DNA of 56,437 nucleotides, the filler included, from Basidiobolus ranarum (Eukaryota), in the NCBI GenBank assembly GCA_040143965.1. It is 3 parts of 3 records of this genome, joined end to end, with 100 filler letters (N's around TTAATTAATTAA, not from the genome) between each part and the next. Parts side by side here need not be neighbours in the genome. Positions count along the whole stretch, not along the records: positions 37,735 to 56,437 come from JASJQH010007145.1; 2 more parts are not named here. The stretch is one strand, 5' to 3'. Position numbers and translations under genes: made by a program. Below the pieces are notes generated by a model that was given only the letters and a program-made list of their open reading frames with translations, searched no databases and was not told where the DNA came from. This document shows, piece by piece, positions 18,780-56,437 of the stretch. Position 1 is the stretch's first letter. Every line of letters starts with the position of its first letter.

Positions 18780-18879
18780 NNNNNNNNNNNNNNNNNNNNN
18801 NNNNNNNNNNNNNNNNNNNNNNNTTAATTAATTAANNNNNNNNNNNNNNNNNNNNNNNNNNNNNNNNNNNNNNNNNNNN
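18780..18879. other. Artificial contig linker (N44-TTAATTAATTAA-N44)
   Basis: 100-bp N run with a six-frame-stop palindrome at 18824-18835. Confidence 0.97.
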
Positions 18880-31808: not shown

Positions 31809-32255
31809 CTAATCTCTACTAGAATTCACACGCATACGGCTTTGACCTTGAAGTTTCTCTGATTTGCCTTCAGCCAATATTTGTTGATCGTTAAGTTTTT
31901 CACCCACTGCCTCTTTGAACTGGCCCTTCAACTCTTCCCCTGCCCCTTCTGCATACTCTCGTACTCTGGCCGACTCATAGTCCGCGGCCGCTTGTGCATG
32001 GTCGCATAGACCTTCGGCTGTCATCTCGTCCTTGCCAAGCAAACCACCTACAACTTGTTTCATACTGCCTTTAGCTGCTTTGATGTTTGCTGAGGTTTTA
32101 GTAGGCTCGGTCTTTGTGGAGGCATCCCAAATGGCATTAGCCTCGGCTTGCTTGTGCTGCCCGTCAGATTGCATTTGATCATTCCCTAACAAGCCTCCAA
32201 CTGCTTCTTGAATATAGCCTGAGGCTGATTTCGCTGTAGTTGAGATTCTGTCCAT
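31809..32255 (-). CDS. CsbD-like repeat stress protein (Hmp1/LEA-like)
   Basis: Three repeats, GYIQEAVGGLLGNDQMQSDG / GSMKQVVGGLLGKDEMTAEG / GQFKEAVGEKLNDQQILAEG, typical of the CsbD family. Confidence 0.8.
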   Translation of the reverse strand: MDRISTTAKSASGYIQEAVGGLLGNDQMQSDGQHKQAEANAIWDASTKTEPTKTSANIKAAKGSMKQVVGGLLGKDEMTAEGLCDHAQAAADYESARVREYAEGAGEELKGQFKEAVGEKLNDQQILAEGKSEKLQGQSRMRVNSSRD

Positions 32256-37634: not shown

Positions 37635-37734
37635 NNNNNNNNNNNNNNNNNNNNNNNNNNNNNNNNNNNNNNNNNNNNTTAATTAATTAANNNNNNNNNN
37701 NNNNNNNNNNNNNNNNNNNNNNNNNNNNNNNNNN
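37635..37734. other. Artificial contig linker (N44-TTAATTAATTAA-N44)
   Basis: Same structure as 18780-18879, with the palindrome at 37679-37690. Confidence 0.97.
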
Positions 37735-38070
37735 GCCACCATTTCCTCCATAGCCACCATTGTCGTCATCATCTCCGCCATTACCGCCAGAGCCGTTTCC
37801 ATTACCACCAGACCCGCTGTCGTACCCACCAGCGCCACCACCGTTACCTCCTGGGCCACCGCCATTGCCACCAGCACCACCACCGTTTCCTCCATAGCCA
37901 CCATTATCACCACCATTTCCTCCACCATTGTCACCAAGACCTCCGGAAAGGTCACTAGTGTCATATGCTGACCCAACACCACCGGAGCTACCACCATGAG
38001 CGGAGGATCCGGCGCTTACGGAGCATGCGGCAGACAGAACAAAAAGAAGAGTAGGGGCGGAGAATTTCAT
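37735..38070 (-). CDS. Secreted Gly/Asn-rich low-complexity protein (3' end lost at contig edge)
   Basis: Signal peptide MKFSAPTLLFVLSAACSVSA followed by GGNGG/DNGGYGGNGG repeats running into the gap. TATAAAA upstream at about 38141-38147 (minus strand). Confidence 0.8.
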
Positions 38071-39021
38071 TCTGTAAAGGGTATTTTAAATAATTGATAA
38101 ATCAATATTTTTGTGAGTATAAAGAAAGTTGGTGGTGGGTTTTTATATTCCACTCTATGATGAATCCCAAATTCCCTTACATGTATGGCACCGTTTACCT
38201 ACTTTGACTAACATCCACTATGCGATAGAATTGTTGAATTAGCGAGTAAACGAATAGGTGGATACACGAATGGAGATTTGAAACCACTTACTTTGAAACG
38301 CAGTTCAATTGCATTATTCTCGATTATTCTTGTAATGCAAATCCACTTTATTCTCGCTGTTAATATGCAAATGGAACAATGTGGAGACACTTTCGTGAAT
38401 TCTAATGTAAACTTTCCCCTTAATCGTTGAAGAAAGTTATCCGATGACGAAAAGGCATCTCCTGAAATCTCTACCAATTATTGACTGGTTAAACACTGAT
38501 AAATTGGAACCTAGGTGTCAAATAGCGTAACAAACTGACTATTTCCTACTTTAATTATCAGAAAATTGGAACCCCTAGAACAAGCCCTACTTGTCCTACC
38601 GACCTCCTAAGTTTTTGAAGAATCAACCAGTCACCTTTAGTGTACGTATCACTTGGAAGAGAAATCCCTCAGAATAATCCTACTTTTCTATGGGAAAGCC
38701 TCCTCACTTCGCTCACCCTTACTCCCTATCCCTTTGCCTCCTTTGGATTGGTGCTAGGAGGTTATACAAACAGGAACAGGAATAGGCGTATACATGTTGG
38801 CTAGAGAGCATCCAATCTGTCCCCTAGATGAGATGAGGAATCTCGTTAAAATAGATGGAAGTGGCCAGAGCATGGAAATCTCATCAGGCAATTACAGACT
38901 ATCGGTTGTTTTATTTACATGGGTAGGTTGATGAATATTTTCAATCTGTGATTCGTGTAATCTCCAATTGGGTGGGGTACCCTTAGTGATTTGTTTAGAA
39001 AAGTGTAAGCCATCTGGCAGG

Positions 39022-39080
39022 GCTTTGTTTTTAATAGAGGATATTGCTTTGTTTTTAATAGAGGATATTGCTTTGTTTTT
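39022..39080. repeat. 24-bp tandem repeat (about 2.4 copies)
   Basis: gctttgtttttaatagaggatatt repeated perfectly. Confidence 0.9.
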
Positions 39081-39198
39081 GTAAGCCGAATATACTTCAC
39101 GCACCGACTTGAGTAAGCTAGACATACTTCACACACCGACTTTTCGTCTTGTTACTCAACGCATAATATAAACCTTAGCAAAGAGAAAACTTTGTACA

Positions 39199-41004
39199 AT
39201 GTCCGTATGCATCATTTGCACCGAATCTTTAGCTACTAAACCTCCAGAGGAATCGGGGTTGGAGAGTAAAAATAAAGCCCCTGTTTCAGTGACAATCTGT
39301 AAGTTTTCACCCACCTGCAGTAAAGCACGCTTCGGTCTTTCTAACCTCGACTCTGTTTCAATATGGGAACTTTAGGCGGTCACTTATTTCATACAACTTG
39401 GTAAACCGCAGCCTATTCCACCTTCATAAGCGCTATCATACTCCAGAATCTAACTTGGTTTATAGTATTCTCCACTGGTATAAAACTTTGGAAAATAAGC
39501 GACAAGTTCGTAGCCATAGTTTGGCAGTATCTTGTCCAATATGTAAACAAGATCAACTTAAACGTGATCTGCGGGATATTTACTGTAATTTCGAGGCGGG
39601 AATTGATATTGAAAATCTATCCGAAGATCAAATACATGTAATGAGTTCTATTGATATTGGCCCTCTTTCTCCACTCTTACCTTTTGTCTACGAACAGGAA
39701 CGTATGATCGCGCTGGAACATAAGGTCCAAAGAAGTGATGAAATCAATACCCTATTGAAGGTTAAATTAGTTACTTGCGAGAAAGAATTAAAAGAGATTT
39801 CTGAGAATACTGTGAAAGGGTTGAAGAGTGCTTTAGCTACTTCAAGAGAGCAATTAGAGTGTTCTAAACAAGTGAATTTTGACTTGAAACAGAAAATTTC
39901 CAAATACCAAAGAATACAAAGGTGAACGAATATTCCCTTAGCTTAATCACTGCCAACGTTTAACCATTGCTCTCGCTAGAATTCTGGAATTAGAAAATAA
40001 AGAGAAGGAGCCAGAGAGTGTCGATTTTCTAATGAACTATGAAAATATGAATAGACAGCAACTGATCGAGGCGTTCTTTGCGTTGTATCAGGTGCAACGG
40101 AATGGTGTGAAGTGAGTCTCTTTACGTCAATCTTAGGTGGTTTCCCATGAGCTCATATCCTGCGACTTCGATTAATTATTTTGAAGGGAGCTCAAGCGTG
40201 TTGAGCGATTCCAAGAGGAAGAATGCCGTAAATTACGCGCCGAGATCGAAGAACAGAAAAAACTGAGAGCATTAAAAGAGGATCGCATAAAGACATTGGA
40301 AACATGGATGAAGAATTTACAAGCAAAGGTAAGTTAACTCATCGCAGGTTGTGTCGTAAAAATAGCTACGCTAAATACACATGTATCGTCTTAGAATAAA
40401 AAGCTGCAAGCCCAAGAGAGTAGTCAATCGGAAGATACTGAAAGCAGAAACTCTCCTGAAAATGTAGCCAAAGTGGCTACATTTCGAAGGTTGGCCACCT
40501 TAGTTCAGCTTGGACGATATCCTATACTAATCCTATACTAATGCAATTTGTCCTATCTCATAGAACTCGATCTAATCCGCTTACAAAGCATCTTAGTAGC
40601 GGCTTCCAACCAATCGATCAGCTATCGAGACAATCTCGCCCGCAGATCCCGTCGAAGGAGTTGAAACAACCAAGTAATTAAAAAAACACTTTGACACGTT
40701 CTATATAGTATAATTAATAGATGTTGATTGTAAAGCTATTGAATCCAATGCATCTAAACCGCCATTACCACCTGGAAACTCTGAAGTAATGACTTTGAGC
40801 TCGGACCGTAGTAGCTCTGAGCCGGAACTCCCAGGGTTACGCTTGTCTGCACCATCCACTACAACTACTCAAAGCCAAAGTCGGGTAAATATATGTTCAT
40901 GGTTTAGCCGTGTATACTCTGATCTCATCTTCTTTACCTAGGCTGCTTTCTTCCAATTTGATGGCATGGGCGGCCGGAAGCGCAGAAACCCCTTTTCTAA
41001 ATAA
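39199..41004 (+). CDS. RING-H2 plus coiled-coil E3 ubiquitin ligase, TRAIP/NOPO-like, multi-exon
   Basis: MSVCIICTE...TI|CGHLFHTT|CILHW...SCPICK. The RING is split by a 25-nt microexon at 39376-39400. Long coiled coil; C-terminal FDGMGGR resembles the TRAIP DGLGG motif. Confidence 0.75.
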
Positions 41005-41137
41005 TTTCTCTATCTCTCGTTCATATTCTAGATAATAAACTGTACTTTTAGATTGTGTCACATACAACCCTTAGCTGTAACTACGCTCGTAGTAAAATGC
41101 ATTGTTGTAATTGGAGTTTTATTGGATTTTGAGTAAA

Positions 41138-42568
41138 CTAGACAATTGATCGACCGCTGGCTTTCACGACCTCAGACACATCTTTCGAGTATCTGTAAAC
41201 AGCATCGGCAATACTCTTAGCATTGATAAGGAAAGCCTTGGTGTTGAGGTTCTTGGTTGTGTCACACTCGAGATGATAGCACCAATCCCATTGTTTACCA
41301 ACAACTCCACCAAAGAGCTTTTGTTCTTCCACTGATTTGATGCCTCCAGCACCGGTACTTAGTCCTCCAGATGGAATCCCTGCCTCAGCGAACGGTCCAA
41401 TATCAGAGCCGGTATATGGGAAAGGAACACTCAAGTAAGTGACATTCTTAGCTTTAAAGTCAGTTTCGAAGTCTTTGGTGATCACTTCAGAACCTGGTGG
41501 AGTAGGGCCACCATTGGCATCTTTGTTATAAATGCGCAGAACATAGTTGGGACTGGCAATCATATCAAAATTGAGCATCAATGCAATCTTTTTACGTTCT
41601 TCTTGACTGAGTGAGGCAACGTACGCGTATGACCCTAGTAGTCCGTATTCTTCAGCGGAAAACCAGCCGAATCTCACCTTGTTGTTCGCTTTGTAATTAC
41701 GGCCTAGGTTCAAGGCAACCTCAAGTAATGCAGCTGATCCTGATCCATTGTCATTGATACCCGGTCCGGCCCAAACAGAATCACTATGGGCTCCAAGAAA
41801 CACAACATGATTGGGATCACCGGTCTTGGTTTCAGCAATAATATTGTGAGTGGTTCGATTTTCTACCTTTTCAATGATTGTTAGTTGCAGTTGAACTTGA
41901 CCTAGCTTCAACGATTGAATTAATTTCTCCCCAGAGATTTTACTAAGTCCTCCTGTAACCAGTGTCGAAGTTTCAGTCAGTCCAAGACGACCACGATACT
42001 CCTGGTCAGCATCATTGTAAACTAAGGCTGCCACTGCACCAGCCTTAGCAGCATTTAAAGATTTTACATTGGGTGTACACACACCACGTGAGATCAAAGC
42101 AATCTTTCCTTTTACGTCTACTCCCTCAAAATCCCCAGCTTCGCATCCGAAAGATAGCTCGGTGCCAACTTTGTTAGCGATATGAACCACCTCAGCTTTG
42201 ATTCCTTTCTTTGGTGTAGACTTGGTATATGCCAAGCCAAATACTGGGAACTCCTGCTTCTTACCATTGATGGTAGTTGAGGCTTGGGCATAGATGGTCT
42301 CCGAGTAAGTAGCAACAAAAGGATTGCGGTAAACATTAAACCCAGCACGTTTAAGGTTGCTCTCCAAGTAGCTTAGAGTCAATTTATGACCAGGAGTTGT
42401 AAAGACTCTTGTTCCTTTGTAAACCTTGGAGAAGCGTTGGAAATTGTCTGTGTGGCGAAGAAGTCCCTTGGTCGTAATCTTATTCTGTAGCCATTCGGAT
42501 TCCTGTTTGGAGTCCACCAACAAGGATAAGGCCAAAGCCAAAAGCGTAAAGCTAGCTTTAAGTTGCAT
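41138..42568 (-). CDS. Secreted M28 aminopeptidase with PA domain (aminopeptidase Y/LAP2-like), intronless
   Basis: Signal peptide MQLKASFTLLALALSLLV (ATG at 42568). PA domain VKGKIALISRGVC...AKAGAVAALVYN. M28 motifs GAHSDSV, GPGINDNGSG, AEEYGLLGS, LNFDMIAS, CYHLECDT. Confidence 0.93.
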   Translation of the reverse strand: MQLKASFTLLALALSLLVDSKQESEWLQNKITTKGLLRHTDNFQRFSKVYKGTRVFTTPGHKLTLSYLESNLKRAGFNVYRNPFVATYSETIYAQASTTINGKKQEFPVFGLAYTKSTPKKGIKAEVVHIANKVGTELSFGCEAGDFEGVDVKGKIALISRGVCTPNVKSLNAAKAGAVAALVYNDADQEYRGRLGLTETSTLVTGGLSKISGEKLIQSLKLGQVQLQLTIIEKVENRTTHNIIAETKTGDPNHVVFLGAHSDSVWAGPGINDNGSGSAALLEVALNLGRNYKANNKVRFGWFSAEEYGLLGSYAYVASLSQEERKKIALMLNFDMIASPNYVLRIYNKDANGGPTPPGSEVITKDFETDFKAKNVTYLSVPFPYTGSDIGPFAEAGIPSGGLSTGAGGIKSVEEQKLFGGVVGKQWDWCYHLECDTTKNLNTKAFLINAKSIADAVYRYSKDVSEVVKASGRSIV

Positions 42569-42979
42569 TTTTTTTGTGGATGCTTGCTTCAACTTGAAGG
42601 GAATCTTCGCTTTTTATGGAGTAAACATTAATGTTGTCTCATTTGGTGTGAGAATTATCTCATCCCATTAATTCTCACTAACACCAAGCGACTGGCTAAG
42701 TTGTCACTTGATTACGTGAATCTTTAGTAGCACCAAACTCTCTTTTCATTCTGTGGTACGACACAGATATTTGGTCAAGTGTAGTAAGTAAACCGGAGAT
42801 AAGGATATCAGCGAGTTTTAATTGGTAAAATAATGCTATCATTTCTGGGATTATTTAGCAATGTCGATCTACTCTAATTTACGGTGGGAATTTCTTACTT
42901 CTTTACCTCCAATGTGGATGGTAAATACGCAAGGATAATATAGATAGATAGGGAAGAACCATTCTTATACAACATGGAG

Positions 42980-43057
42980 TTTGAAATCCACTTGTTTAGC
43001 TGAGTGTAGAAGAGTGAATTTGAAATCCACTTGTTTAGCTGAGTGTAGAAGAGTGAA
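42980..43057. repeat. Perfect 39-bp tandem duplication
   Basis: tttgaaatccacttgtttagctgagtgtagaagagtgaa x2, head to tail. Confidence 0.92.
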
Positions 43058-43739
43058 TAAGCCGTGTTCTGCATATGCGTTTATGCTAAATATGGGGATT
43101 TTATAGAGATTTTATGAGGATTCAGTAATTCGTATGTGGTTACAGTATGTGGTTACATTTACATTTTACAGTTTACAGTTTAAAATAATACTGAGTTTGG
43201 GTTCTAAATACAGAGTGACCGGGTAGGGGGAAAGGTTTCACTAGATTTAACAGAATGGTAACTAAACAAGGTTCGTTCCGATTCATCCATCGTGGTTCTA
43301 TAATCGTGGTTCTGCAACGAGGATTTAAGAAATCTCAAAAAAGGTATCCCGATGATTACTTAATATAATCTAACGCCCAACACTTAACACCTAATATACC
43401 AGTATAATATATCGTTATACTCTCACTACATTTGATAAAGTCAATTCGCTGAATAAGAATAATAACTACCACGAACCATCCAACTGGATTTCACAAACTA
43501 CCATGGATTGTTGTGGGCATGTGTGCAGTACCATCCAATAAAGATCAAATGGTTGGTTTGATATCAGCTTATGCTATACTTGTTGTACTCGTGGCAAGAT
43601 TGATGTGCCAAAAGACTGAGTTTCGCATATAAGCATATCTAATATGGTCTAATCGCTCATATACTTTACTCGTTGACCTACCGATGCCAACTGAAAACAT
43701 TTCTGTTACCGAAGATCCATTTCACGTGGAAAGAAGGAG

Positions 43740-44490
43740 CAATGGTTCTGTGATCCAGCCGCTGAGAAAGCTTTAGTTCGTAAGTTGGACTGGCGGTTGG
43801 TTCCATTCCTATCTTTGCTGAATCTATGTTGCTTTCTTGATCGTGCAAACATCGATATGTAATGGGTGTGAGTATCACTTAGATTTGCTGATGTAATTGA
43901 CAGATCCATTGGTAGGGAATGTCAAAGTTGCTCATATTGACCGAGATCTCGGCTTAACACTGAGTTCAGCTGGTCATTGTCGATTTTGTTCTTCGGCTAT
44001 GTGAGTGGAATTCAGTTACGGAATTCAAATAGTCATTTTTGATGGTTATTAATTGGTTGCGCTATTAGCAGAAAGTGCAATCAGAAATGGATTTTCACAA
44101 TCACTGGCAAAATAGTTAAATCTTCTTTAGCCGGTATGACTCCGGTATGATATTTTATCTTTCAATATAGTACACAAGGAAAGAACAAGTTGTCCGCATT
44201 GCATTCACTTTTGGCGCAACTATCATTGCCGCTGCCTTTGGTGGCATACGGAATCGTCTAAATGAATGGAGTACTTGGCTGGCTGGTGATGGTTATTTAT
44301 CTTCGAGTAGGTTCTTTAAAATATGAAGGCCAGGCTTGATTTGGCACAAACTAATGATTTTAACGTAGAGGATTACCAACACTAGTTCCTGGCTTAATGG
44401 CATACTTCTATCTTCCAGACTCTCCGGAGACTGCAAAATTTCTTCTCAAAGAGGAACGCGAGCTGTTAGTGAATCGCCTTACGCAGATAC
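43740..44490 (+). pseudogene. Degraded ACS-family MFS transporter (allantoate/nicotinate permease-like)
   Basis: Fragments DPAAEKALVRKLDWRLVPFLSLLNLCCFLDRANI, GNVKVA..DRDLGL (frameshift) EFSWSLSILFFGY, SI*YTRKEQVVRIAF..A..IAAAFGG, YGIV*MNG, *WLFIFE, GLPTL...YFYLPDSPETAKFLLKEER. In-frame stops, frameshifts and missing segments. Confidence 0.85.
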
Positions 44491-45009
44491 AAGTGCTACC
44501 TCGCAGACAGAGTTCTCCTGTCAATTGGTACCGTTGGCGGTAAATTGGGTGGTCAGCATCCTTATTTCCGCTACATTTCGTAAATGGACAATATAAAGCT
44601 GAGATCATATGCATCTTCTAGGTATTTTCATGAGTTCAACTGACTGTATACATCCTTGCTCCGAATTTGTTTCATTTTTTGTATTTTTCGTTACAACCAC
44701 CATTATTATCCCCATTGTTAATGAAGGTCAAAAACACTATCTGCTACGCTTAGTCATGAACTCTTTACATAAGCATGTAAGGATACTGTGTCACCTAAGC
44801 TGTAAGGAAACCATATCCCAAAAACTCTGTCAACAATCGTCTGTAGCGCTTTTATAGACTTGAAACTGTGGATTAGCTATCTAGGATAATGCCAACCATT
44901 ATTTGCAATGTTATTATCAGGGTCAAGATTTTTATTGAGAGTTTATTTTTATGTCATCCAATGTCACATTCACAACTGGACTCTAGGTTAGGTTATACAC
45001 GTCTTGTTT

Positions 45010-45969
45010 TCATATACTTTTCTCACTGGCCTTGGTACTAACTGTCTTGTTCATTACTGCCATTTTGTACACTTTTTCTACTTGCTCTTGATTAGAAATA
45101 ACCAAACCCAGTTCACGAATTAGCCCATCCTCCAGTGAATAGCACCAGCCATGTACTGACAATGGTTGCTTGTGCTCCCAAGCTGATTGAACTATCGAGC
45201 TGTGACAGATATTATAAACGCTATTACTAACATTTAATTCGACTAAAAGGTCAGTTCTGGCGATGGGATCTTCGACAGCTTCAAGATTCTCTCTATTGGC
45301 TAAGGAATCATGATGTCAGTTGAATGCTGTATTGGCATATTGAAAAGAAAATTGTTTACCTCTGTAGACATCTTTAATATTGCACAACCAGGAGTCAATC
45401 AGTCCGTGGAATTTATTTTCTGCCGCTGCAGTAACACCTCCACATCCGTAATGCCCTGTAGAGTTGAATGAATGAGTGAAGGTGGGACCCTCGTTTAGAC
45501 GTTGCGTGAAAGTAAAAGGAATTTTGCTTCATTCAACATACCACATACAACTATATGTTCCACCTTAAGGACATCTACAGAATATTGAAGTACCGATAGA
45601 AAATTCATATCCGTGTGGATACACATATTGGCAATGTTACGATGAACAAAAAGATCTCCAGGAGCTACGAAAAGACTTCAGTTTGTGAAAGATTCACCGT
45701 ACACTAAATACACATAACATACCACACTGTACAACCTGTTCAGCAGGAACTCTAGAATCCGAGCAGCCAATCCATAGAACCTTGGGACTTTGCCCTTTGG
45801 CAGAAGTGGAAAAGAATTGGGGTTGTTCTTCTTGAATAAATTTCGCCCATTCCTTGTTTCTATTGAGCATATCTTTCAATCTGTCATCTAGAGCAAAGTA
45901 AGTTACCTAAGTTTAAAGTGAAGGCATTGAAATTTACTTACCTTCGGATAAGGGGAGATGAGAGTGCAT
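45010..45969 (-). CDS. nce103: Beta-class carbonic anhydrase (paralog 2), 5 exons
   Basis: [23 protein letters not shown]...[17 protein letters not shown]..|[36 protein letters not shown]..|..[20 protein letters not shown] at 45010-45012. Confidence 0.93.
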
Positions 45970-46759
45970 GTTGGACGACGTAAAGAGGATTTGTACAGAT
46001 AGTAAATATTTATTGCAGCTCAAGTTGCAACAATGGTTAGGCTACGAGATGCATATCACTTTCAAGAGAGTCGGCCAAATATAACCCTTTAACCCTATCA
46101 GGGTGTGTCTCATTGACCCAATCTGCTACAGACGGTATATATTTGTATAATCTTAATGTCGATCAGTGGATAAGATCTGGTACATTGTTTGAATCTAGTC
46201 CAGTACTTGTGCTCAGAGCAGTTATTAAATGTCCTGTTCCATAATCAAAATGTTCTGTCTATGTCATGTGGTATAATCGATCAAATTTGGTATTATCAGC
46301 TATAATAGTGATCAACGGCTAAATATTGTCACTTTACTTGCTACTTAGGGTTAAGTGCTGTTTGACCTATCCGCTGTCCTGCCGCATCTATTTTTCACTA
46401 ATCATCTAACTTTCAACTAAGCTATTTACTGTTGAAATATTGGAGTTAAGCACCTAAATATTCATATTTATGATATTCGCCATAACTAACATGTGTGTGT
46501 TTCGTTGCGAGTGTTTCGTTGCGTGTGTTTCATTGTCACAATAACTGCAGAAATAATTCATTGATATTGGCTGAGAAAATGTATGTATATAGTACAACGT
46601 TGCCAATATACTACTATGCCATTTACCTTCAAAAAGTAGACTACTAACCAACAGAATTTCCATACTATTATGTACATTATTTATAGTCTAGCTGTAAATT
46701 TAACACAACTGGGAGCGTAGAATTCCTAACCCTAATTGCCTTGCTAGAGCTGGAAGATT

Positions 46760-49700
46760 TCAACAACGTTGTGATTTGCCTAGTTCCAGATTCAAAATAC
46801 GAGCTATCTCAACTGTATTTGTTGATCTGATCATATCTTCTTGTTGACAGTGGATACTATAGGTCTTAATATTGCCGTCAATGTACGGTTTCCATAAATA
46901 CGGGGAGAGCTGAGTGGTAGTTTTGTCCTTTTTCTCTGTTGCTTGTACGAAGAGAAGGTCGCCCTTGAAAATTCGAGGCGAGGTGTTCTGTCGAGTGGGA
47001 GGGGTGGTTAAGTACAAACCCTGATGATTTGCCAACTTATTCGTATCGATGACTATGTCACCACTACAACAACTAAAGAATTGACAATAAGGGGGATCGG
47101 GAGTCATCTCTGAAGTGCAATCTGGTCGCGAGTAGTCAGGATAACCATCCAGAAACGCGAGCAATTCCACACTTTCACCTTCAACTTCAAGTTGGATAGC
47201 GATACGGTGTGCTACACTGGCACCGAATGACCACCCAAGAAGATAATATGGCCCGTTTCTCTGAACTTGACGAATCTGATGCAAACATTCTGACGCCATG
47301 GTATCAAATGCCATGTCAATTGAAGTTACATTACTGCGTAAACGGGGCTCAAGATAGTAGACTGGTTGATCTTTATGTAAGCGTTCTGATAAGTCGGCAA
47401 CACTCCAGCGATGACCAATTACAGCATGGATGCAGAATAGAGGAGATCTCTGGCCTGTCGGTTTGATGGGAACCAAAATATCCAATGCATTGTCTAGAGA
47501 GTTTTCTGACTCGCTCAAACTCTGTGCCAATTCGGCAATGGTGGGTGATTGGAATACCATATGAGCCGTAACCTCGATGCTTAACGAAGTTTGAATTCGA
47601 TTACACAATAGCATTACGAGTAGAGAGTGACCTCCAAGTGAGAAAAAGTTATCATGGCGACCAATTTGCTCTTTGTGCAGTAGGGCGCTCCAAATATCTG
47701 CAAGCATATTCTCAATATCGCCTTGCGGCTCATCGTATACATGACTAGTGAAGTCACTTTCTTTCGGTACTGGAAGTACCCGGTAATCGAGTGTGCCATC
47801 AGGAGAGAGTGGTAGTGCATCTAACAGAATAAAACAGGCAGGTATTTTATATTCAGGTAATTTAGTCTTGAGGTACACTTGTAATGCGCGAATTAGATGT
47901 TCGTCAGACTTAGCCACAACATATGCTACAAGGTGCAAGTTAACTCCTTCACAGAGAGTGGTTACAGTGGCATCCCGCACTTGTGGATGCTCGATTAAGT
48001 GTGCTTCAATCTCTCGAACTTCGATCCGAACGCCCTGGATCTTGACTTGCTGATCATTGTGGCCTAGGTATACGAGTGTTCCATCAGGTAAATAACGAGC
48101 TAGATCTCCAGTTTTATACATCCTAGCATTACTTTCTTGACTGAATGGATCGGCTAGGAAACGCTCAGCAGTCATCTCGGGAAGGTTCAGATAGCCACGA
48201 GTGACACCAACACCACCAATGTAAATCTCACCTATTGTCCCAAAGGGTACTGACTGACGATACGTATCAAGCAAGTATACACGAGTGTTTGCAACTGGTT
48301 GGCCGATAGGTGCCAATTTCCCTTTGAAATTAGTTGGACAACGCCACATAATGGAGTAGACCATTGTTTCTGTCGGCCCATAAACGTTGATAAAAACACC
48401 TTGAGACATCAGAGATGGAAGCAATTTTGCACGGGGTCCTTCACCTCTCGTGATTACAGTTAGAGGTGAACTCAGAATCGGTAAATCCTTGGCATCTTGT
48501 AGCATCGCGGGTGTCAAAGTTACATGGGTAATCGCATGCTTTGCCAAATAATCCCACAAAGCATTCCGGTCGATATGAGCGATATCAGGTGGTAAATACA
48601 ATCTTGCACCGCAGCTTAATGCCATAAATATTTCCAAGAAACTCATATCCAAACTGAGTGAGGCAACTTGTAACATCCTACTAGATGAGTTGACCTCAAT
48701 ATAGCTCATTTTACCCTGGATGCTATTTACCACATTCTGATGTTCCACCATCACTCCTTTCGGATTACTAGTAGAGTCAGAAGTATAAATCACATAGGCG
48801 AGGTGTTGTGCAGTCAACCATGATGCATGTGGATTGGTAGTGGGCCATGTCGTCTGTGTATTCGGATCAAGAACAGTCATCGAGGTGAGATCCTCTTCAC
48901 TCAGTGCAGTACGTCCAGTCTTATCAGCTATCAGCACTATTGGGGAGGAATCTTTGAGTATGTACGAAAGCCGGTTGCTAGGATAGGTCGGATCAAGTGG
49001 AACATACGCGCCACCCGCCTTTAAGACCGAGAGTAACCCCACAACCATGGCTGGCGACCGTTCGACACAGATCGCGATGCGCGTATCCGGTTTGATGGAC
49101 AATTTCATGAGCTGATGTGCCAGACGGTTGGCACGCATGTTCAGCTCATCATAAGTCAATATCTGATCCTCATGTACTAAAGCAACAGCATTCGGAGTTC
49201 GCTCTACCTGCTGCTCGAACAACTGGTGAATGCACAGATGTTCTTGGTATTGCCTCCTTGTCTCATTCCACGTTTCCAATAGAAGTCTACGCTCAGCAGG
49301 AGCTACAATGTTGATACTATGAACGGGTTGCATGGGGTCAGCTATCATTCCTTGTAACATGGTTTTTAGATAATTGACATGTCGCTCAATTGTCTGATGA
49401 TCGAATAGAGCAGTTGAAAAGCTCAATTCGCCAACTATCTCATCACCGATTGTTTGCACATCTAGTTCAAGATCAAGCAAGGAGTCAGATACAAACCCTG
49501 AATGACACTTACTTTGATATGAGAACGTGACCTGAAACAATTGATTACGATTCAGCTCTTGAGGCGGTTGTACTCTCTCGATAATTTCATTAATGGATAT
49601 GTCTTCATTCTCCTGTGCTTCTAGTATACCAATTTGAACTTGCTCTAATAACTCAATTGTACTTGGCTCACTTGAAAGGTTGATACGCAATGGAAGCCAT

Positions 49701-50095
49701 CTGCCAAAACTACTCATCAAATATTCATTTTCACTGCGATTATTACGGGCTCTTGGTATCCCAATGATAATATCATCTTGGCCGGAGAGACGAGCTAGTA
49801 CTGCACTCCAGGCAGTTAACAAAACTATGGATACAGACACATCATTTTCCTGGCTCAGCAATTCTATGGAGTGGGTTATTTGTACATCAAGCTGGACCGT
49901 TGTTACAGACTTAGTAAAGTGTTGTTGAGGTTGATGAGGACGATCGGCAGGGAGGTAGAGTAAAGGAGGGACATTGGCTAGCTTTTTACACCAATACTCA
50001 CTATAGGAATTTGTACTTGTTGAGGTGATAAACGCACGCTCGTGGTTTTTTAGCGATGAAATGTGTATTCTTTTTGGAGTACTTGGAATTGGCAT
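46760..50095 (-). CDS. Monomodular bacterial-type NRPS-like protein (partial C - A - T - TE), intronless, with degenerate catalytic motifs
   Basis: C-domain second half (YW.KKL..VPPLLYLPADRP, LARLSGQDDIIIG, LPLRI, LFQV). A domain (LTYDELNMRANRLAH, LKAGGAYVPLDP, LAYVIYTS, NVYGPTE, GEIYIGG.GV.RGYLN, MYKTGDL). T domain (FFSLGGHSLL). TE (PLFCIH, GPYYLLGWSFG). First ATG at 50095. Confidence 0.93.
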   Translation of the reverse strand: MPIPSTPKRIHISSLKNHERAFITSTSTNSYSEYWCKKLANVPPLLYLPADRPHQPQQHFTKSVTTVQLDVQITHSIELLSQENDVSVSIVLLTAWSAVLARLSGQDDIIIGIPRARNNRSENEYLMSSFGRWLPLRINLSSEPSTIELLEQVQIGILEAQENEDISINEIIERVQPPQELNRNQLFQVTFSYQSKCHSGFVSDSLLDLELDVQTIGDEIVGELSFSTALFDHQTIERHVNYLKTMLQGMIADPMQPVHSINIVAPAERRLLLETWNETRRQYQEHLCIHQLFEQQVERTPNAVALVHEDQILTYDELNMRANRLAHQLMKLSIKPDTRIAICVERSPAMVVGLLSVLKAGGAYVPLDPTYPSNRLSYILKDSSPIVLIADKTGRTALSEEDLTSMTVLDPNTQTTWPTTNPHASWLTAQHLAYVIYTSDSTSNPKGVMVEHQNVVNSIQGKMSYIEVNSSSRMLQVASLSLDMSFLEIFMALSCGARLYLPPDIAHIDRNALWDYLAKHAITHVTLTPAMLQDAKDLPILSSPLTVITRGEGPRAKLLPSLMSQGVFINVYGPTETMVYSIMWRCPTNFKGKLAPIGQPVANTRVYLLDTYRQSVPFGTIGEIYIGGVGVTRGYLNLPEMTAERFLADPFSQESNARMYKTGDLARYLPDGTLVYLGHNDQQVKIQGVRIEVREIEAHLIEHPQVRDATVTTLCEGVNLHLVAYVVAKSDEHLIRALQVYLKTKLPEYKIPACFILLDALPLSPDGTLDYRVLPVPKESDFTSHVYDEPQGDIENMLADIWSALLHKEQIGRHDNFFSLGGHSLLVMLLCNRIQTSLSIEVTAHMVFQSPTIAELAQSLSESENSLDNALDILVPIKPTGQRSPLFCIHAVIGHRWSVADLSERLHKDQPVYYLEPRLRSNVTSIDMAFDTMASECLHQIRQVQRNGPYYLLGWSFGASVAHRIAIQLEVEGESVELLAFLDGYPDYSRPDCTSEMTPDPPYCQFFSCCSGDIVIDTNKLANHQGLYLTTPPTRQNTSPRIFKGDLLFVQATEKKDKTTTQLSPYLWKPYIDGNIKTYSIHCQQEDMIRSTNTVEIARILNLELGKSQRC

Positions 50096-50485
50096 TTTGA
50101 GCTTGAGATGTAAGAAGCAACAGTAACCAATAGTATTTATGAAATTAGTGAGCGTATGGTCTAACAACCGATATCTGGAGAGCTCTGAGATAAAAGTTGA
50201 TTTCTGCCGGGGATTTATTTGATGGATGCCATTGCATTATATGTAATTAGCTCTTAAAGCAGACTCCAATATAATAGGGGTTACGAAAGGGGTCCACTAG
50301 GGGTCAAATGAGTTAATTTCCGTGTAAGTGTATGTCCTTTAGGGTTAGGTGTAAGTGTATGTCCGAAAGGATTAAGGGCTCATTTGTATCATTGTGTAAG
50401 ACTCTATTTTTACCTGATAATTCAGTTAGGCTTTATTATATTAGAGTTGAAAATTTCTGCATCAGACTTGAACGGGGAATCTACA

Positions 50486-50537
50486 TGATACTGATACTGT
50501 TGCTGATACTGTTACTGATACTGTTACTGATACTGAT
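50486..50537. repeat. 12-bp-period minisatellite (ctgatactgtta)
   Basis: tgatactgatactgttgctgatactgttactgatactgttactgatactgat. Confidence 0.85.
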
Positions 50538-50848
50538 CGCTTGGGACACATACTTGAATTTGTATTGTGGCGCATGACTAAAATTAGCAAATTGAGCATG
50601 AGTGAGAGAATGAAATGGAGGCCGTGCCCCAGATACCTGACATCACCTGCTATCAACATAATTAAGATTGTTGCCAGATTGATGCATATACAGATTGATG
50701 CATACGCTTAAACATATGATCGAATATATATATGAACCTCTATGTATACATATACGTTGGTTTGATCCTTAATTACAGACTCTGTCACTCTATGCTGAAA
50801 TGAGTAATGCTGAATAGAAACTGTAATTTAAGAATATGAGCACAATAT

Positions 50849-53800
50849 TCAATGTGTTACATTCAAATTCTGCTGCATGCAAAGACTGGCATATACTCCG
50901 TTTTGGGCTATTAACTCGTAGTGCTGGCCGGATTCAACAATTTCGCCGTTGTTAATCACAAGAATCAAATCTGCATCTTGAACGGTGCTCAAACGATGTG
51001 CTATCATAATGGTAGTGCGACCGGTTCGCGCTCGGTCGAGTGCATCTTGCACATGATTCTCCGACTCGGAATCCAAGGCCGATGTAGCCTCATCTAACAG
51101 CAGGATCTTCGGATTGCGTATCAGTGCCCGAGCAATAGCAATTCGTTGCTTCTGACCTCCGGAAAGATGGGAACCTTTGTCTCCTACTCGAGTATCATAT
51201 CCGTCAGGTAAAGAAGTAACAAAATCGTGAATGTTTGCCGCTTGAGCAGCTGCAACAACCATTGCGTGATCCATGTGCTGACCGTCAGGGATTCCATATT
51301 GAATATTCTCTCCAATGCTCATGTCAAACAAAACAGGCTCTTGACCCACGAGTGCCATATAACTTCGAACATTTGAAAGCTGAATATCACGCAAATCATG
51401 GCCATCAATGGTTATCCTACCCCCGCTAACATCATACCATCGCTCAAGAAGAGCAATAACTGTGGACTTTCCGCATCCTGAGGGGCCTACTAACGCTATC
51501 GTATTACCTGGGTTTATTTTCATATTAATGCCATCGAAGATATTTACATCAGGTCTGGTGGGATAATGGAACTTGACATCCTCCAGAGAAAGAGAGCCCA
51601 TTGGGATGAACGAAATACCATCTTCAAATGCATCAATTGCCGTATGCTTGTCAAGGAGTTCAAAAATATTGATAGCAGACTGTTTTCCCCTGACATACGC
51701 AGGGAGTTTGGCTGCCATTTCTCCTAGATTCATAGCCAAGAAAACTACGTAGAACATTGTACTAGAAAGCAAGAAAAACCAAGGATTAATAAAAATTATA
51801 AATATGGTGTAAATCAGGCAATTCCAAACTCACGTGAACATTTCACTCCATTGCATTACACCTAAACCAACAAATCGATATCCTGCATAGAATCCGGTCG
51901 CATATATCCAGAAAACTATACTTTGAGCCATTGCATAGCCGATTGCTCCTAGATATGCTTTTCGCTTGGCAAACTGGTGCGGCACGCGCATGGCATCTTC
52001 GTACCGAGCTTCAAAATGAGACTCCTTTGCTAGACAGGTAACAGTGCGTACATTCATTATTGCTTCACTTGCAATTCTACCTGACAACTCGTAAGCTTCT
52101 GCGGTCTCTTCTTCAATTACAGTAAGAGCCCAGACTTCAAAATATTCGGCCGCCACTAAGAATGGGAGCACAGCTAAGATTACTAATGTGATTCTCCAAC
52201 TGGTGTTAAAGGCGAGCGCCAAACTGAGGGTCACGGTAGTTAAGGTTTGAATGACTATCCTGATCATCTGAGATACGAGTTCATGCATGCGATAAGCATC
52301 TGTTGCTAAATGTGAGGTCAGGGAACCAGTAGAATGCTCTTCTTGATCAAAGAATCCAGCTTCCTGACTCAAAATAGCCTCAAAGCTGAGACTTCGCATT
52401 CGAAGGGCCATTCGCTCACCAATCCAACCAAATATTATTGCCGATCCACCCATAGTCAATCCCGCTGCAGTTGCTATAATAATTGTCATCAAAGCATTAA
52501 AGTTAATATTTGAGTTCCAGTCTGGTTCCTCAGGTTTCGTCAGCAGATCCCATATTTGACCGAAGTATTTTGCAAACAGTGGGAAAATCTAACGAGAATA
52601 CTCGTTATTAGTTGTTATAATCACGGAAATGTCCACTAAATGTAAACTTACTACACCAGAAGCTCCACTCAACACAATGCCTGCTAATACTAAACCAGCA
52701 TCCGGCCGCATATATTTCGCCACACGAAGTACAAGCCCTATTCGTGTTCTCTTGGCTTTTATCTCTTCTTTGTGGTGCTTCTCAGTCTCGCTCTCGACTT
52801 TTTCAATTTCGATAGTGTCCTCGTCTAATTGAGTTGTCAATTTGGATTTCGATGCCGATTGTATAGACACACGACACTCACTCGATGGTATCGTGCATGG
52901 TCTGAGAGGTTCCATATCGTTTTCAACCTTTTTTTGGTCGCAAAGATAGGACTCATTCGATAAAGACGTCACTTCAGATAAAGATAATGTTGATTCAGGT
53001 CCGACATTTTTATCAACACCTCCAGACTTAAGTTGCTGCTTCGATACAAGTTCAGCATATCTACCTTTCAATGCCAACAGGGATTCATGGGAGCCAGACT
53101 CCACTATGACTCCTTTGTCAATAACATAAATCACATCTGCATTCTTAATGGTGGAGAGCCTATGTGCTACGACAAGAGTAGAGCGTCCAGCTGACGCTTT
53201 CTCAAGGGCTTCTTGTACTATTTTCTCCGACTCGGTATCCAGTGCTGACGTAGCCTCATCTAACAGCAATATCTGAGGTTTCTTGATTATTGCACGAGCA
53301 ATTGCAATTCTCTGCTTCTGGCCACCAGATAAAAAGACTCCCCTTTCACCGACAAGGGTATCATATTTCATCGGTAGTTTCTCAATGAAATCATGCGCAT
53401 TGGCTAGACGACATGCTTCTTCAATCTCATGCTCTGTTGGCTGTAGTTGTCCATTGCGAGCCCCAAGGGTAATGTTTTCTTTGATGGTTGCATTGAATAG
53501 TACTGGCTCCTGGGAGACAGTGCCTATCATATCTCGCAAGAATGACACATTGTATGATTTGAGGTTAATATCATCAATGGTAATTGATCCAGCTATATGT
53601 GAAAGTTCAAGATTTGGTTACAAACTGAGAATTATATTCGATGCAATGACTAGTGTACTAACATGTAGGATCGTAAAGCCGTTGTAATAGCTCAACAATA
53701 GTGGACTTTCCACTTCCTGAGTGACCAACTAAAGCTACTGCCTGTCCAGGTTTAACTTGTAAACTTATGTTTTTTAGAACTGGGACGCCTGTTCTCATAG

Positions 53801-55178
53801 GGTAAGTGAAGTTTACATTTTGAAATACAATACTTCCTTTTACGCTCTCAGGCTTGTCTCCCTCATTGCTTGACGAATCAATATTGGGAGTTCGCTCAAT
53901 GACTTTAAAGATATGGTATGCGGCGCCCTGAGCTCCAGCAAATACCCCAACATTGGGGGCTACATCCCAAAGAGCGTATGCGCCTACAGTTATTCCCATG
54001 AAGACAGTCATTACTTCTTCAGCAGTCATCTCTTTGCTAGAAATTAGCTTAGCGCCATACCAGAAAGCAAGCGAATCGGGAGCAAAGACTAAAAACATAA
54101 TGAACCCAAAACCAATACCACTTAAAATGGCCTTTCTAGTCCCGCTTTTGTACGCTGTCTTGAGGTGGTTTACGTAAGCTTCGTATTCTCGCTTCTGACC
54201 ATTGAAAACATACACAGTTCGGATAGAAGAGATGGCTTGCTCAGCTATTACCCCTGCTGCAGAATAAGCATCTTGCTCCTCTGCAGAGGTCTCGACTATG
54301 TATTTCGCAATAGCCACACAACCAACTGTTCTTGGAATAAAAAGGATGAATATTCAAGTTTAATTTGATGATTGACCTATAATACTTGCCAATCATGAAG
54401 GGTAATAAAGCTAACAACACAAGTGACAAACGCCAGCCTCGAGCAAAGCTGATAACGTATCCTGCGAAGAAAGTGGCGGAGTTTGAAATAACTATGCCCA
54501 CTTTTTCAGCCATTCCATCATAAATCACTTGAGTATCAGCGCTCAAACGAGTCGTCAGAGAATCTGCCTGCTTCTTTCCAGAACTCGAATCTTCACTCCC
54601 ATCAGTCGGGGTACCAGCACCATCATGCCATGCCATATCTTGGCGTAGAACAGCATGCAAGTACTTCTCTCGGATTTGTTTGCCTTGATTCTCAGCTGAG
54701 AGGGTCCAAAAGTACATTTGACCGTAAGCAGCTACTAGTATCACCAAACCAAGAATGAAAAAATATTGAACACTACGCAAAATCTGCGACTCAGCACCGG
54801 CAGTGGTGAGGTCTATTGTAACGTCACCGAATGCAACTGCAATAAGAGCCTGCGCAACACCAGCGGTGAGAGAGCATATTATTGCCAATCTAGAGAATCA
54901 AAAACTAATCAATAAGTGCTAAGAGAAAGAAACAAGCTCAAAGCTATTCGTATAAGCAAAGCAGTAACGTACAAAATGTATAAGCGGTCCCAGAGAGACG
55001 CAAAGCGATAAAGAGAGAAATAGGGTACTGATTTCACTTCAGATTTTCTTTTGGTCGAGTTCGCTTCACCTTTTTTTAGGCCAAATAGACTCTTCAGCCA
55101 TGAGGTGGATATTCGTTGTACAGAGTTATTGTCCTGCTCTGGGGGTTCTGAAGGCTGATTATTCAAGACCGATGCCAT
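50849..55178 (-). CDS. Full-length ABCB (MDR1/P-glycoprotein-like) exporter, multi-exon
   Basis: TMD-NBD-TMD-NBD. NBD1: [52 protein letters not shown]2: [29 protein letters not shown]-terminal [25 protein letters not shown]. Confidence 0.95.
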
Positions 55179-56437
55179 CAGTGGAATATGTTGGCGATAA
55201 AAGCTAGACAGATAGTGAAGCTGGCTTAAATGGCCTCTTTAGGGGTAAGGAGGTAAGGGTTTACTTAGTTAAGAGTGATCCGTTATTGAGATAAATAGCG
55301 CTCTGACTAAAGTATCTGTACTGTGCGCTGATCGCTCAGTGGAATGAATTGATTCGGATTCAGATATCAGGGATTGTTCTAATATCCAGAGAGGAGCTAC
55401 ATGGTGTCATATGTGGGATGTCATGCAGTAAGCATAATGATGCAAGAATTATGTATTTTCTGAGATGGATCAGTGGATTGAGTGGGGACAGGAGTCAATG
55501 TAAAATATAATTTGAACAATCCATATTGTAAGTCGAAAAGTGTAAGTCGAATTTAGCCAACCGAACTTCCTTCTTATTATCCTAGAAACATACCAATTTC
55601 CTTTATTTCCCCCTTCGATATAGACATTGGCTTTCTTCTCAAAAAGCTACCATATTTCTTCTATGCAACTACGACCAAGTCTGCTATCATATTTACAGCA
55701 TCGCAAACTGCTTTCGATTGCTTGCATTTCAATCATGAGGTGTTGCAAATGTATGCTACTCAAAAAGATTGCCCAAGCGATCCTAGGCAAGTATTGTGAT
55801 GCAAAAATTTAATTACTAAACTTTTGCCATTCTCGTGAGATATGAATTGTTGGCGTACTTGTGAGATATTAGTAGTTATGGGACTACCTGTCCAAATACG
55901 GAAAGATGTAACTCTGTTTTTGGCTTAGTCACAAATAGTGTAGTTATTTGGTTACCATTCAGGAGTAAACAAGAAATGGCAAAATGCCAAATCAGTAAGT
56001 TGAATAACCATGCATACAAAGCATGTAGAGTATAGTACCTCCTGCAAGGACAGTACAGACTACCAATCTTTGCTAGTACTAAAAAATTAGGCTGAAGCAG
56101 ACAACATCAATGATATTGTGCACTTATTTTCTCACATGCTTGCTGCACAGAGAAGAGGAGGTCCTATAATGAAAGTGAAGATTACCAAATGCTGAGAAAC
56201 AATAGTATTGCATCCAAGAGAAAAGTGATAGACAGTCTTGAACTTAGGGGGATGAAAAGCACTGGGTGGTGTGGACTTTATTTAGCTTATATACTAGGGG
56301 GATGATAAACACCAGAAGGTGTAATATTTATTTATCAATTTACACAAAGTCAATAAATAAATAAGCCAAGGTAGAACATAATATTCAAAGATAAAGTCAA
56401 GAAGTTGACAAAGCTGAGTTTCCTAGTAAGCTAGGCC

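Follow-up and report, generated by a model that had tools for sequence, protein, structure and literature searches.

In a 56,437-nucleotide (nt) stretch of the Basidiobolus ranarum genome assembly GCA_040143965.1, hereafter the window, the minus strand carries a single stop-free open reading frame (ORF) of 1,111 amino acids (aa; 46760–50095, with its ATG at 50095 and its TGA ending at 46760) that encodes parts of a nonribosomal peptide synthetase (NRPS). Pfam recognizes in it a condensation (C) domain covering only positions 181–456 of the profile, an adenylation (A) domain with its A-C-term part, a carrier (T) domain, and a thioesterase (TE), which we designate Cs, A3*, T3, and TE*, with Cs standing for a starter C domain and the asterisk for predicted inactivity. 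The comparisons below suggest that a conserved dead terminal module is probably real, while the stand-alone pseudo-NRPS that it seems to form is probably an artefact of assembly. The window itself consists of three contigs, each 18.7–18.8 kb, joined by N runs at 18780–18879 and 37635–37734 and 12-nt spacers. Since this joining is artificial, genes across the N runs are not neighbours, and the true context of the ORF is limited to 37735–56437, which is contig C7145 of this genome (G000).

Motif changes in the terminal module

Searches with regions of the protein returned two close relatives only, namely the frame on contig C8294 of the same genome (P0008), which is the best single-module match, and ORX97912.1 (P0122), a 3,244-aa uncharacterised NRPS of Basidiobolus meristosporus CBS 931.73. 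All motifs listed in a preliminary description of the ORF (YTSDSTSNPKG, SLSLDMS, ITRGEG, GHNDQQVKIQGVRIEVREIE, LPLSPDGTLDY, LGGHSL, GWSFG, and HCQQEDM) were read identically from its translation. A3* (47768–49246; like all features given below, on the minus strand) is full-length, has the pocket code DMLTIRVVYT, and departs from active adenylation domains both in its A3 P-loop (48755–48787), where the consensus SGSTGxPKG is broken by two single-base changes in Gly codons (48778–48776 and 48769–48767), and in its degenerate A8 motif (48005–48064), where two invariant arginines have become His and Gln. For comparison, 746 A domains were aligned, of which 617 were retained as controls once those below 40% identity and the seven focal ones had been dropped. 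The A10 position of the catalytic lysine is Lys in 588/588 controls covering the site; here it is Thr (47792–47794), in ORX97912 it is Val, and in C8294 it is deleted. Six of the 55 near-invariant sites (at least 97% conserved in the 617 controls) are altered in A3*, compared with a control median of 0 and a 95th percentile of 2. All three dead modules carry an arginine (here 48446–48448) at the pocket position that we take, from assumed numbering anchors, to be the equivalent of GrsA 301; this residue is found in 0/617 controls, and the amino-binding Asp is retained. Judged by the lysine, P-loop, and A8 losses against the controls, A3* is very likely unable to adenylate, in line with the original proposal that it is catalytically dead.

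The other catalytic centres of the module are affected unequally. The T3 carrier domain (47522–47704) retains the Ser of GGHS (47626–47624), and TE* (46760–47458) retains its Ser (47230–47228) and Asp (47149–47147), while the Ser-Asp-His triad of a type I thioesterase is left incomplete by a Gln in place of the His (46843–46841). This Gln aligns with the TE His of 7CRN and EntF; the position is His in 211/211 control TEs spanning the site and Gln in all three copies (this gene, ORX97912, and C8294), which have further TE changes in common. The Ser motifs of the carrier domain (GG[H/D]S) and of the thioesterase (GWSxG) are retained in all three genes. An AlphaFold model of A*-T-TE*, built on a 34-row alignment, reached a mean predicted local distance difference test score of 85 with a low-scoring TE lid and does not discriminate between the readings discussed below.

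Cs (49277–50095) is truncated at its N terminus and has no HHxxxDG motif, an absence that had been listed among the departures from consensus. It is 52.8% identical to the Cs of ORX97912, whose full-length protein begins with an equivalent stub, and the Mortierella synthetases MpcA and MpbA are described as having truncated starter domains of ~250 aa with no HH motif (bioRxiv 2020.08.21.262279). Since both the full-length orthologue family and the Mortierella proteins begin in this way, the half C domain corresponds to a regular starter stub rather than to the product of damage or decay.

A repeat shared with a second contig

Although the reading frame is indeed uninterrupted, as first described, the claim that it is an intact stand-alone module fares less well, given the overlaps with a second contig of the same genome and the existence of ORX97912 as a long orthologue. 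Contig C1383 is 6,187 nt long and consists of one open frame of 2,062 aa with the domains A-T-C/E-A-T-C (C/E, dual condensation/epimerization), cut at both ends. Its 3′ end equals gene nt 662–765 exactly, that is, the first 104 nt of a 442-nt segment R (gene nt 662–1103; 48993–49434) that comprises the end of the C domain, including the last part of Cs, and the start of the A domain, and its 5′ start equals gene nt 993–1103 exactly, the last 111 nt of R, both overlaps being in frame. As both ends overlap R in loop order, the arrangement points to a pattern X-R-Y-R-Z that was assembled as X-R-Z plus a loose Y. With Y set between two copies of R, the gene grows by 6,414 nt (divisible by three) and the predicted protein has 3,249 aa; this is arithmetic only, yet the prediction predated our discovery of ORX97912, with its 3,244 aa and its domains in matching order. 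C1383 is collinear with residues 299–2360 of ORX97912 (72.8% identity over 2,062 aa). No contig of the genome besides C1383 matches R above 76%, and nine exact runs of at least 25 nt, from A1, A2, and C3, are common to the gene and C1383, with none in 21 other fetched NRPS-bearing stretches. A 111-nt overlap also joins another contig pair (C12220/C6626), a single example suggesting that 111 nt is the assembler's junction length. We had also considered C1383 as the middle of a paralogue represented by contigs C9061 and C8294, an assignment that we rejected, as it overlaps C8294 only as a 75% paralogue.

From these overlaps, the ORF probably represents the fused 5′ and 3′ ends of a trimodular NRPS of ~3,249 aa, collapsed in the draft assembly, with the likely gene order Cs-A1-T1-C/E-A2-T2-C3-A3*-T3-TE*. 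The terminal order C-A*-T-TE with a non-functional A domain is seen directly in ORX97912 and C8294; for the present locus, we infer it. We hold with good confidence that the middle 2,138 codons were omitted from C7145 and assembled apart as C1383 and that the cause was gene conversion, which made the 442-nt stretch identical in modules 1 and 3. Two observations weigh against the collapse: one C1383 overlap measures 104 nt rather than 111, and the assembler did join both ends, just as it would have done with a true pop-out allele. In that case, the short form would be real, having arisen by a recent in-frame pop-out between the R copies on one allele or in one nucleus, and a stand-alone Cs-A*-T-TE* would exist beside the full-length allele. 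The contig does run through R without a break and in frame, and recombination between direct repeats of 442 nt is plausible. However, the existence of the long form is shown by C1383, the 1,111-aa form has one database member, which derives from C7145 itself, and the Cs end and the A*-T-TE* end were each found in one copy only, such that any pop-out allele must be very young and without a selective history of its own. We therefore regard a genuine short allele as improbable. With the module forming the C terminus of a trimodular NRPS, the middle of which is found on C1383, the earlier suggestion of a free-standing sensor, decoy, or carrier also loses its footing.

Traces of conversion between modules 1 and 3 are visible within A3*. 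The dead domain is placed with A1 of C1383 (support 99/98) when the tree is built from the N-terminal A region, whereas the pocket region unites the three dead A domains (94/86), and this conflict points to gene conversion between modules. The P-loop tract is 93–100% identical to A1 on C1383; the two single-base Gly changes set the P-loop apart, and free drift explains them as well as selection against activity does, because the lysine had already gone. In the next tract, A3* differs from A1 at eight places; at six of these, among them the pocket Leu and Arg, the same residues set the two domains apart in B. meristosporus. As a separate observation, the pocket region of A2 on C1383 (module 2 of L032; code DLLGIAIVHK) clusters with that of the dead A3* domains (93/92), a hint that modules may have exchanged pockets.

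Age of the dead module and selection

The inactivating changes are not private to the present gene. The corresponding motifs read YTTAPAGNPKG, ITRGEA, LPLSPNGVLDN, and HCQQEDL in ORX97912 and YTSTITGKPKG, ITRDQV, and CCQQEDM in C8294, where the A10 region is missing. In a quick tree of 48 rows, the T-TE ends of the three genes form one branch (Shimodaira–Hasegawa-like approximate likelihood-ratio test 100, stem 0.61), within which the present gene falls outside the pair of C8294 and ORX97912 (support 88). This placement, together with the common losses, indicates that both the duplication and the dead state predate the split of the two species. The closer counterpart of ORX97912 in this genome is C9061/C8294, with 79–82% identity in the live A, T, and C3 parts and 62% in Cs, which makes the locus studied here an older paralogue. 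C9061 (L038, 1–3973, minus strand) is a duplicate locus with a Cs-A1 start, a frameshifting deletion of ~90 codons, and decayed ABCB1 remnants before it; a 135-nt stretch preceding its Cs-A1 start is 87% identical to the far end of C7145. C8294 (L031, 1–4401) carries a paralogous A2-T2-C3-A3*-T3-TE* in which most of the C-terminal subdomain of A3* has been lost in frame. The middle modules of the C9061/C8294 paralogue were not found in this genome, and C12138 (L049, 559–1014) holds a stop-riddled fragment of the same A-domain family.

We compared the present gene with C8294 for the ratio of nonsynonymous to synonymous substitution rates (ω). The GY94 model gives ω of 0.21 for A*, 0.32 for T, and 0.19 for TE, next to 0.22 for the live A2-T2-C3 part, with ω = 1 rejected in each; a counting method gives 0.22, 0.20, 0.17, and 0.17, respectively. 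Over the 744 codons, every 0.1 neutral substitutions per site should introduce about 8 stops, and there are none at a synonymous divergence (dS) of ~0.9–1.7. The altered invariant sites (at least 97% conserved) lie preferentially in catalytic motifs, with 6/28 compared to 0/27 elsewhere in this gene (p=0.013) and 8/28 compared to 1/27 in ORX97912 (p=0.014).

The preliminary description had offered two explanations, a young pseudogene not yet hit by a stop or a protein retained for some function, and these data favour the second. The first would now mean that the copy at this locus lost its function recently, as a decaying relic. It gains some weight from this copy having the longest terminal branch of the three (0.44, compared to 0.15 and 0.19) and from the decay of the duplicate locus, with its frameshifting deletion on C9061, the loss of the A C-terminal subdomain on C8294, and its missing middle. 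Yet the key losses are older than the species split and common to ORX97912 and C8294, ω is ~0.2 (0.19–0.32 across the domains) with no stop accumulated, and C1383 stays open in a single frame over 2,062 codons. Even the youngest converted tract (aa 368–443) has an ω of 0.26, the only two clearly lineage-specific changes in it being the P-loop glycines. We consider recent decay very unlikely. Several further points weigh against a selected dead state all the same. Motif enrichment is not significant in C8294 (7/26 compared to 2/21, p=0.13), and at a 90% threshold it persists in ORX97912 (p=0.014) and falls to p=0.11 in this gene (7/34 compared to 5/56) and p=0.29 in C8294, the windows of the catalytic motifs having been drawn after the data were seen. 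The dead module diverges faster than the live parts (61% identity to ORX97912 compared to 68–77%), A1 also has 3–4 altered invariant sites, and ω is an average over a long time for one paralogue pair, leaving room for a recent loss of function here. On balance, these comparisons indicate that the last module was anciently inactivated and is kept under selection in two Basidiobolus species.

No close relatives with this dead module turned up outside Basidiobolus in the region searches or in a search of 1.84 billion representatives with the TE end, where, of the 150 best matches listed, none but the query exceeded 46% identity. Other candidate families did not hold up: P0062 and P0291 were rejected as alignment artefacts, P0253 and P0171 were rejected since they retain the Lys and the His, and P0349, a degenerate Streptomyces module with 33% identity (below the 40% control cut-off) and a TE His, is not linked to the clade. 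P0349/P0405, an unrelated C-A-T-TE protein whose A domain is broadly degenerate (Lys replaced by Ser) and whose TE His is intact, is a separate candidate for a dead module.

Upstream modules, neighbouring genes, and candidate routes of release

ORX97912 matches the present gene in domain order, A1 code, dead A3*, TE Gln, and the C3 changes and differs in its A2 code (DPSTIGEINK, compared to DLLGIAIVHK in C1383). The A1 code, DTSTIGAISK, is identical in both species; it resembles what we take to be Tyr-type codes, and residue 1 would be aromatic, perhaps Tyr. In both species, A1 (C1383 and module 1 of P0122) has a His for the Arg of A8 KIRG and reads PNDK in A10, with the Lys and the P-loop kept, which may reflect an unusual substrate or reduced activity. 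The second C domain carries both histidine motifs of a dual C/E domain, and residue 1 should thus become D. C3, which precedes the dead A domain, reads YHIILDG, YHLVSDG, and YHMVSDG in the three genes; its first His, present in 143/143 controls, is Tyr in all of them, while the catalytic second His is retained. In addition, the Arg of its C1 motif, found in 99% of controls, is Ser in two of them and Gly in the third. By its R-x-W spacing this Arg fits the acceptor-gate residue R2577 of FscG, a position equivalence that is indirect, and the structure with R2577G (7KW2) scores ~3.5 bits above the wild type (7KVW) against the Gly-bearing C3, again an indirect indication. C3 has thus probably lost its acceptor-gate Arg.

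The gene is a bacterial-type, Burkholderiaceae-like NRPS of early-diverging fungi by its sequence characteristics, given that its nearest homologues outside Basidiobolus, next in rank after P0008, are NRPSs of Mycetohabitans and Mortierellaceae and that it combines a truncated Cs and a dual C/E domain with fungal, intron-containing neighbours. One of these, an ABCB1-type exporter gene (50849–55178), lies directly upstream on the same strand and is a candidate exporter of the product; the paralogous Cs on C9061 likewise has decayed ABCB1 remnants upstream of it. Downstream of the NRPS, an intron-containing gene at ~45010–45970 (minus strand) is similar to beta-carbonic anhydrases, a weak match over one exon. 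On the second contig of the window, a small ORF (31809–32255, minus strand) encodes three repeats similar to CsbD, a mainly bacterial family of stress proteins. An expansion of bacterial-type NRPSs in Basidiobolus has been published, and in the same source a Basidiobolus gene model, 368581, is the sole three-A model in its clade and is reported as highly expressed (PMC7466969); ORX97912 may be this model. MpcA and MpbA of Mortierella alpina are likewise bacterial-type NRPSs of an early-diverging fungus with truncated Cs, dual C/E domains, and a terminal TE. They differ in having five modules, each with a predicted substrate, a proposed cyclisation by the TE, and nine introns, and no dead module is reported in the available part of their description (bioRxiv 2020.08.21.262279). 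In the literature searched, with most subscription journals outside its coverage, ORX97912 is not named, and we found no report of dead terminal modules, TE His/Gln exchanges, or pass-through modules of this type; the Basidiobolus NRPS literature searched contained no characterisation of this gene, and a search on NRPS misassembly returned nothing specific.

The closest known parallel is the glidonin synthetase GdnB of Schlegelella brevitalea, a Burkholderiales-type NRPS. Its last module, C13-A*-T13-TE, is described as releasing the chain onto free putrescine through C13, with A* and T13 stabilising the protein, the T13 Ser being essential in vivo, and TE hydrolysis lowering the yield in vitro (PMC10587159). 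In both systems, the module is terminal, the A domain is non-functional, the T and TE serines are kept, and the C domain is the proposed releasing catalyst. GdnB, which we compared by its published description, differs in that its A* has no Acore subdomain, whereas A3* here and in ORX97912 is full length, inactivated by point changes, and carries the pocket Arg, and in that its tandem TEs still hydrolyse, whereas the single TE here has Gln for His; the present gene is also fungal, with two upstream modules. Since the glidonin scheme accommodates a dead A domain, T and TE domains that keep their serines, the loss of the TE His, and an open C3, we rank first a release module in which C3 of the collapsed trimodular NRPS would transfer a D-L dipeptide onto a free amine, with A3*, T3, and TE* retained, and give this a probability of roughly 0.45. 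In this proposal, A1 would load residue 1, the dual C/E domain would invert it and join it to residue 2 on T2, and C3, its active site remodelled to YHxxxDG and its acceptor tunnel opened, would pass the D-L dipeptide to a free small amine, leaving the neighbouring ABCB1 pump to export the amide. A3* and T3 would be kept as a folding scaffold; as A3* could not load T3, no third residue would compete, and as TE* lacks its His, intermediates would not be hydrolysed. Three observations speak against release onto an amine: C3 has no common acidic gain at the place expected from spacing, the putrescine-binding residues of the glidonin domain (S9963/D9965/E9984) could not be mapped onto it, and an open gate fits a transfer of the chain to T3 equally well.

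In such a transfer, an open-gated C3 would move the dipeptide from T2 to the thiol of an unloaded holo-T3, where it could cyclise to a D-L diketopiperazine or attack further dipeptides to give cyclic oligomers. Izore et al. proposed that the gate Arg prevents pass-through and reported that FscG R2577G admits an unloaded phosphopantetheine arm (PMC8097023). Like this mutant, C3 of the present genes is an LCL-type C domain whose acceptor-tunnel gate carries a small residue; R2577G was engineered, whereas the change here occurs naturally, is conserved, and accompanies a dead A domain. Small residues replace the gate Arg in all three C3 domains, the T3 Ser is retained in all three, and Basidiobolus produces cyclic peptides. 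However, a TE-released product would require the TE His, which is Gln in all three genes; the T3 Ser, being essential in glidonin as well, does not discriminate; and small gate residues occur in many ordinary C domains, the Arg being present in only 73% of LCL domains (PMC8097023). Pass-through is therefore a possible but, in our view, doubtful alternative to release onto an amine. It is tempting to speculate further that selection keeps A3* dead so that T3 stays empty, with the ungated C3 acting as transthiolase and cyclase and the TE as a His-less pseudoenzyme, although we think this rather unlikely. The accompanying detail, that the P-loop was lost again after gene conversion had restored it and that the pocket is plugged by the Arg beside the amino-binding Asp, is to be taken as similarly speculative.

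Alternatively, A1, A2, or a free A domain might load T3 in trans, A3* serving as the docking surface, to yield a tripeptide that a His-independent TE would release. The T3 Ser, the TE Ser and Asp, and the catalytic His of C3 are all retained, residues specific to the A3* pocket survive within converted tracts, and KtzN of kutzneride biosynthesis is cited as a precedent for such a docking surface (PMC10587159). Conversely, no stand-alone A gene is among the ORFs listed on C7145, 211/211 related TEs have the His, and an aminoacyl-T3 acceptor would need no opened gate, which makes loading in trans a most improbable route. An inactive A domain kept within an NRPS, with a proposed structural role, is also described for module 2 of Dol15D in dolastatin 15 biosynthesis (Ax), where it belongs to an internal keto-acid module with an embedded ligase and not to a release module (PMC13643306). 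The published peptides of Basidiobolus are cyclic pentapeptides (PMC10964425), which this gene cannot explain under colinearity.

Taken together, this fungal NRPS of bacterial origin would combine, in its last module, an A domain inactivated by point changes with a TE that lacks its His and a C domain that has been remodelled. The case would correct what is probably a false stand-alone pseudo-NRPS and suggests that gene conversion between modules can make a draft assembly lose whole modules in frame. Should C3 release the chain onto an amine, the module would match that of glidonin, already in use as a swappable engineering part, in a compact fungal form; should the chain pass to T3, it would offer a natural system in which to test what the C-domain gate Arg is proposed to do, and an ungated C3 acting as transthiolase and cyclase would be a release route not met in the literature searched. 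Either reading predicts an as yet unreported two-residue metabolite of Basidiobolus, and counting three A domains would overstate the length of the peptide.

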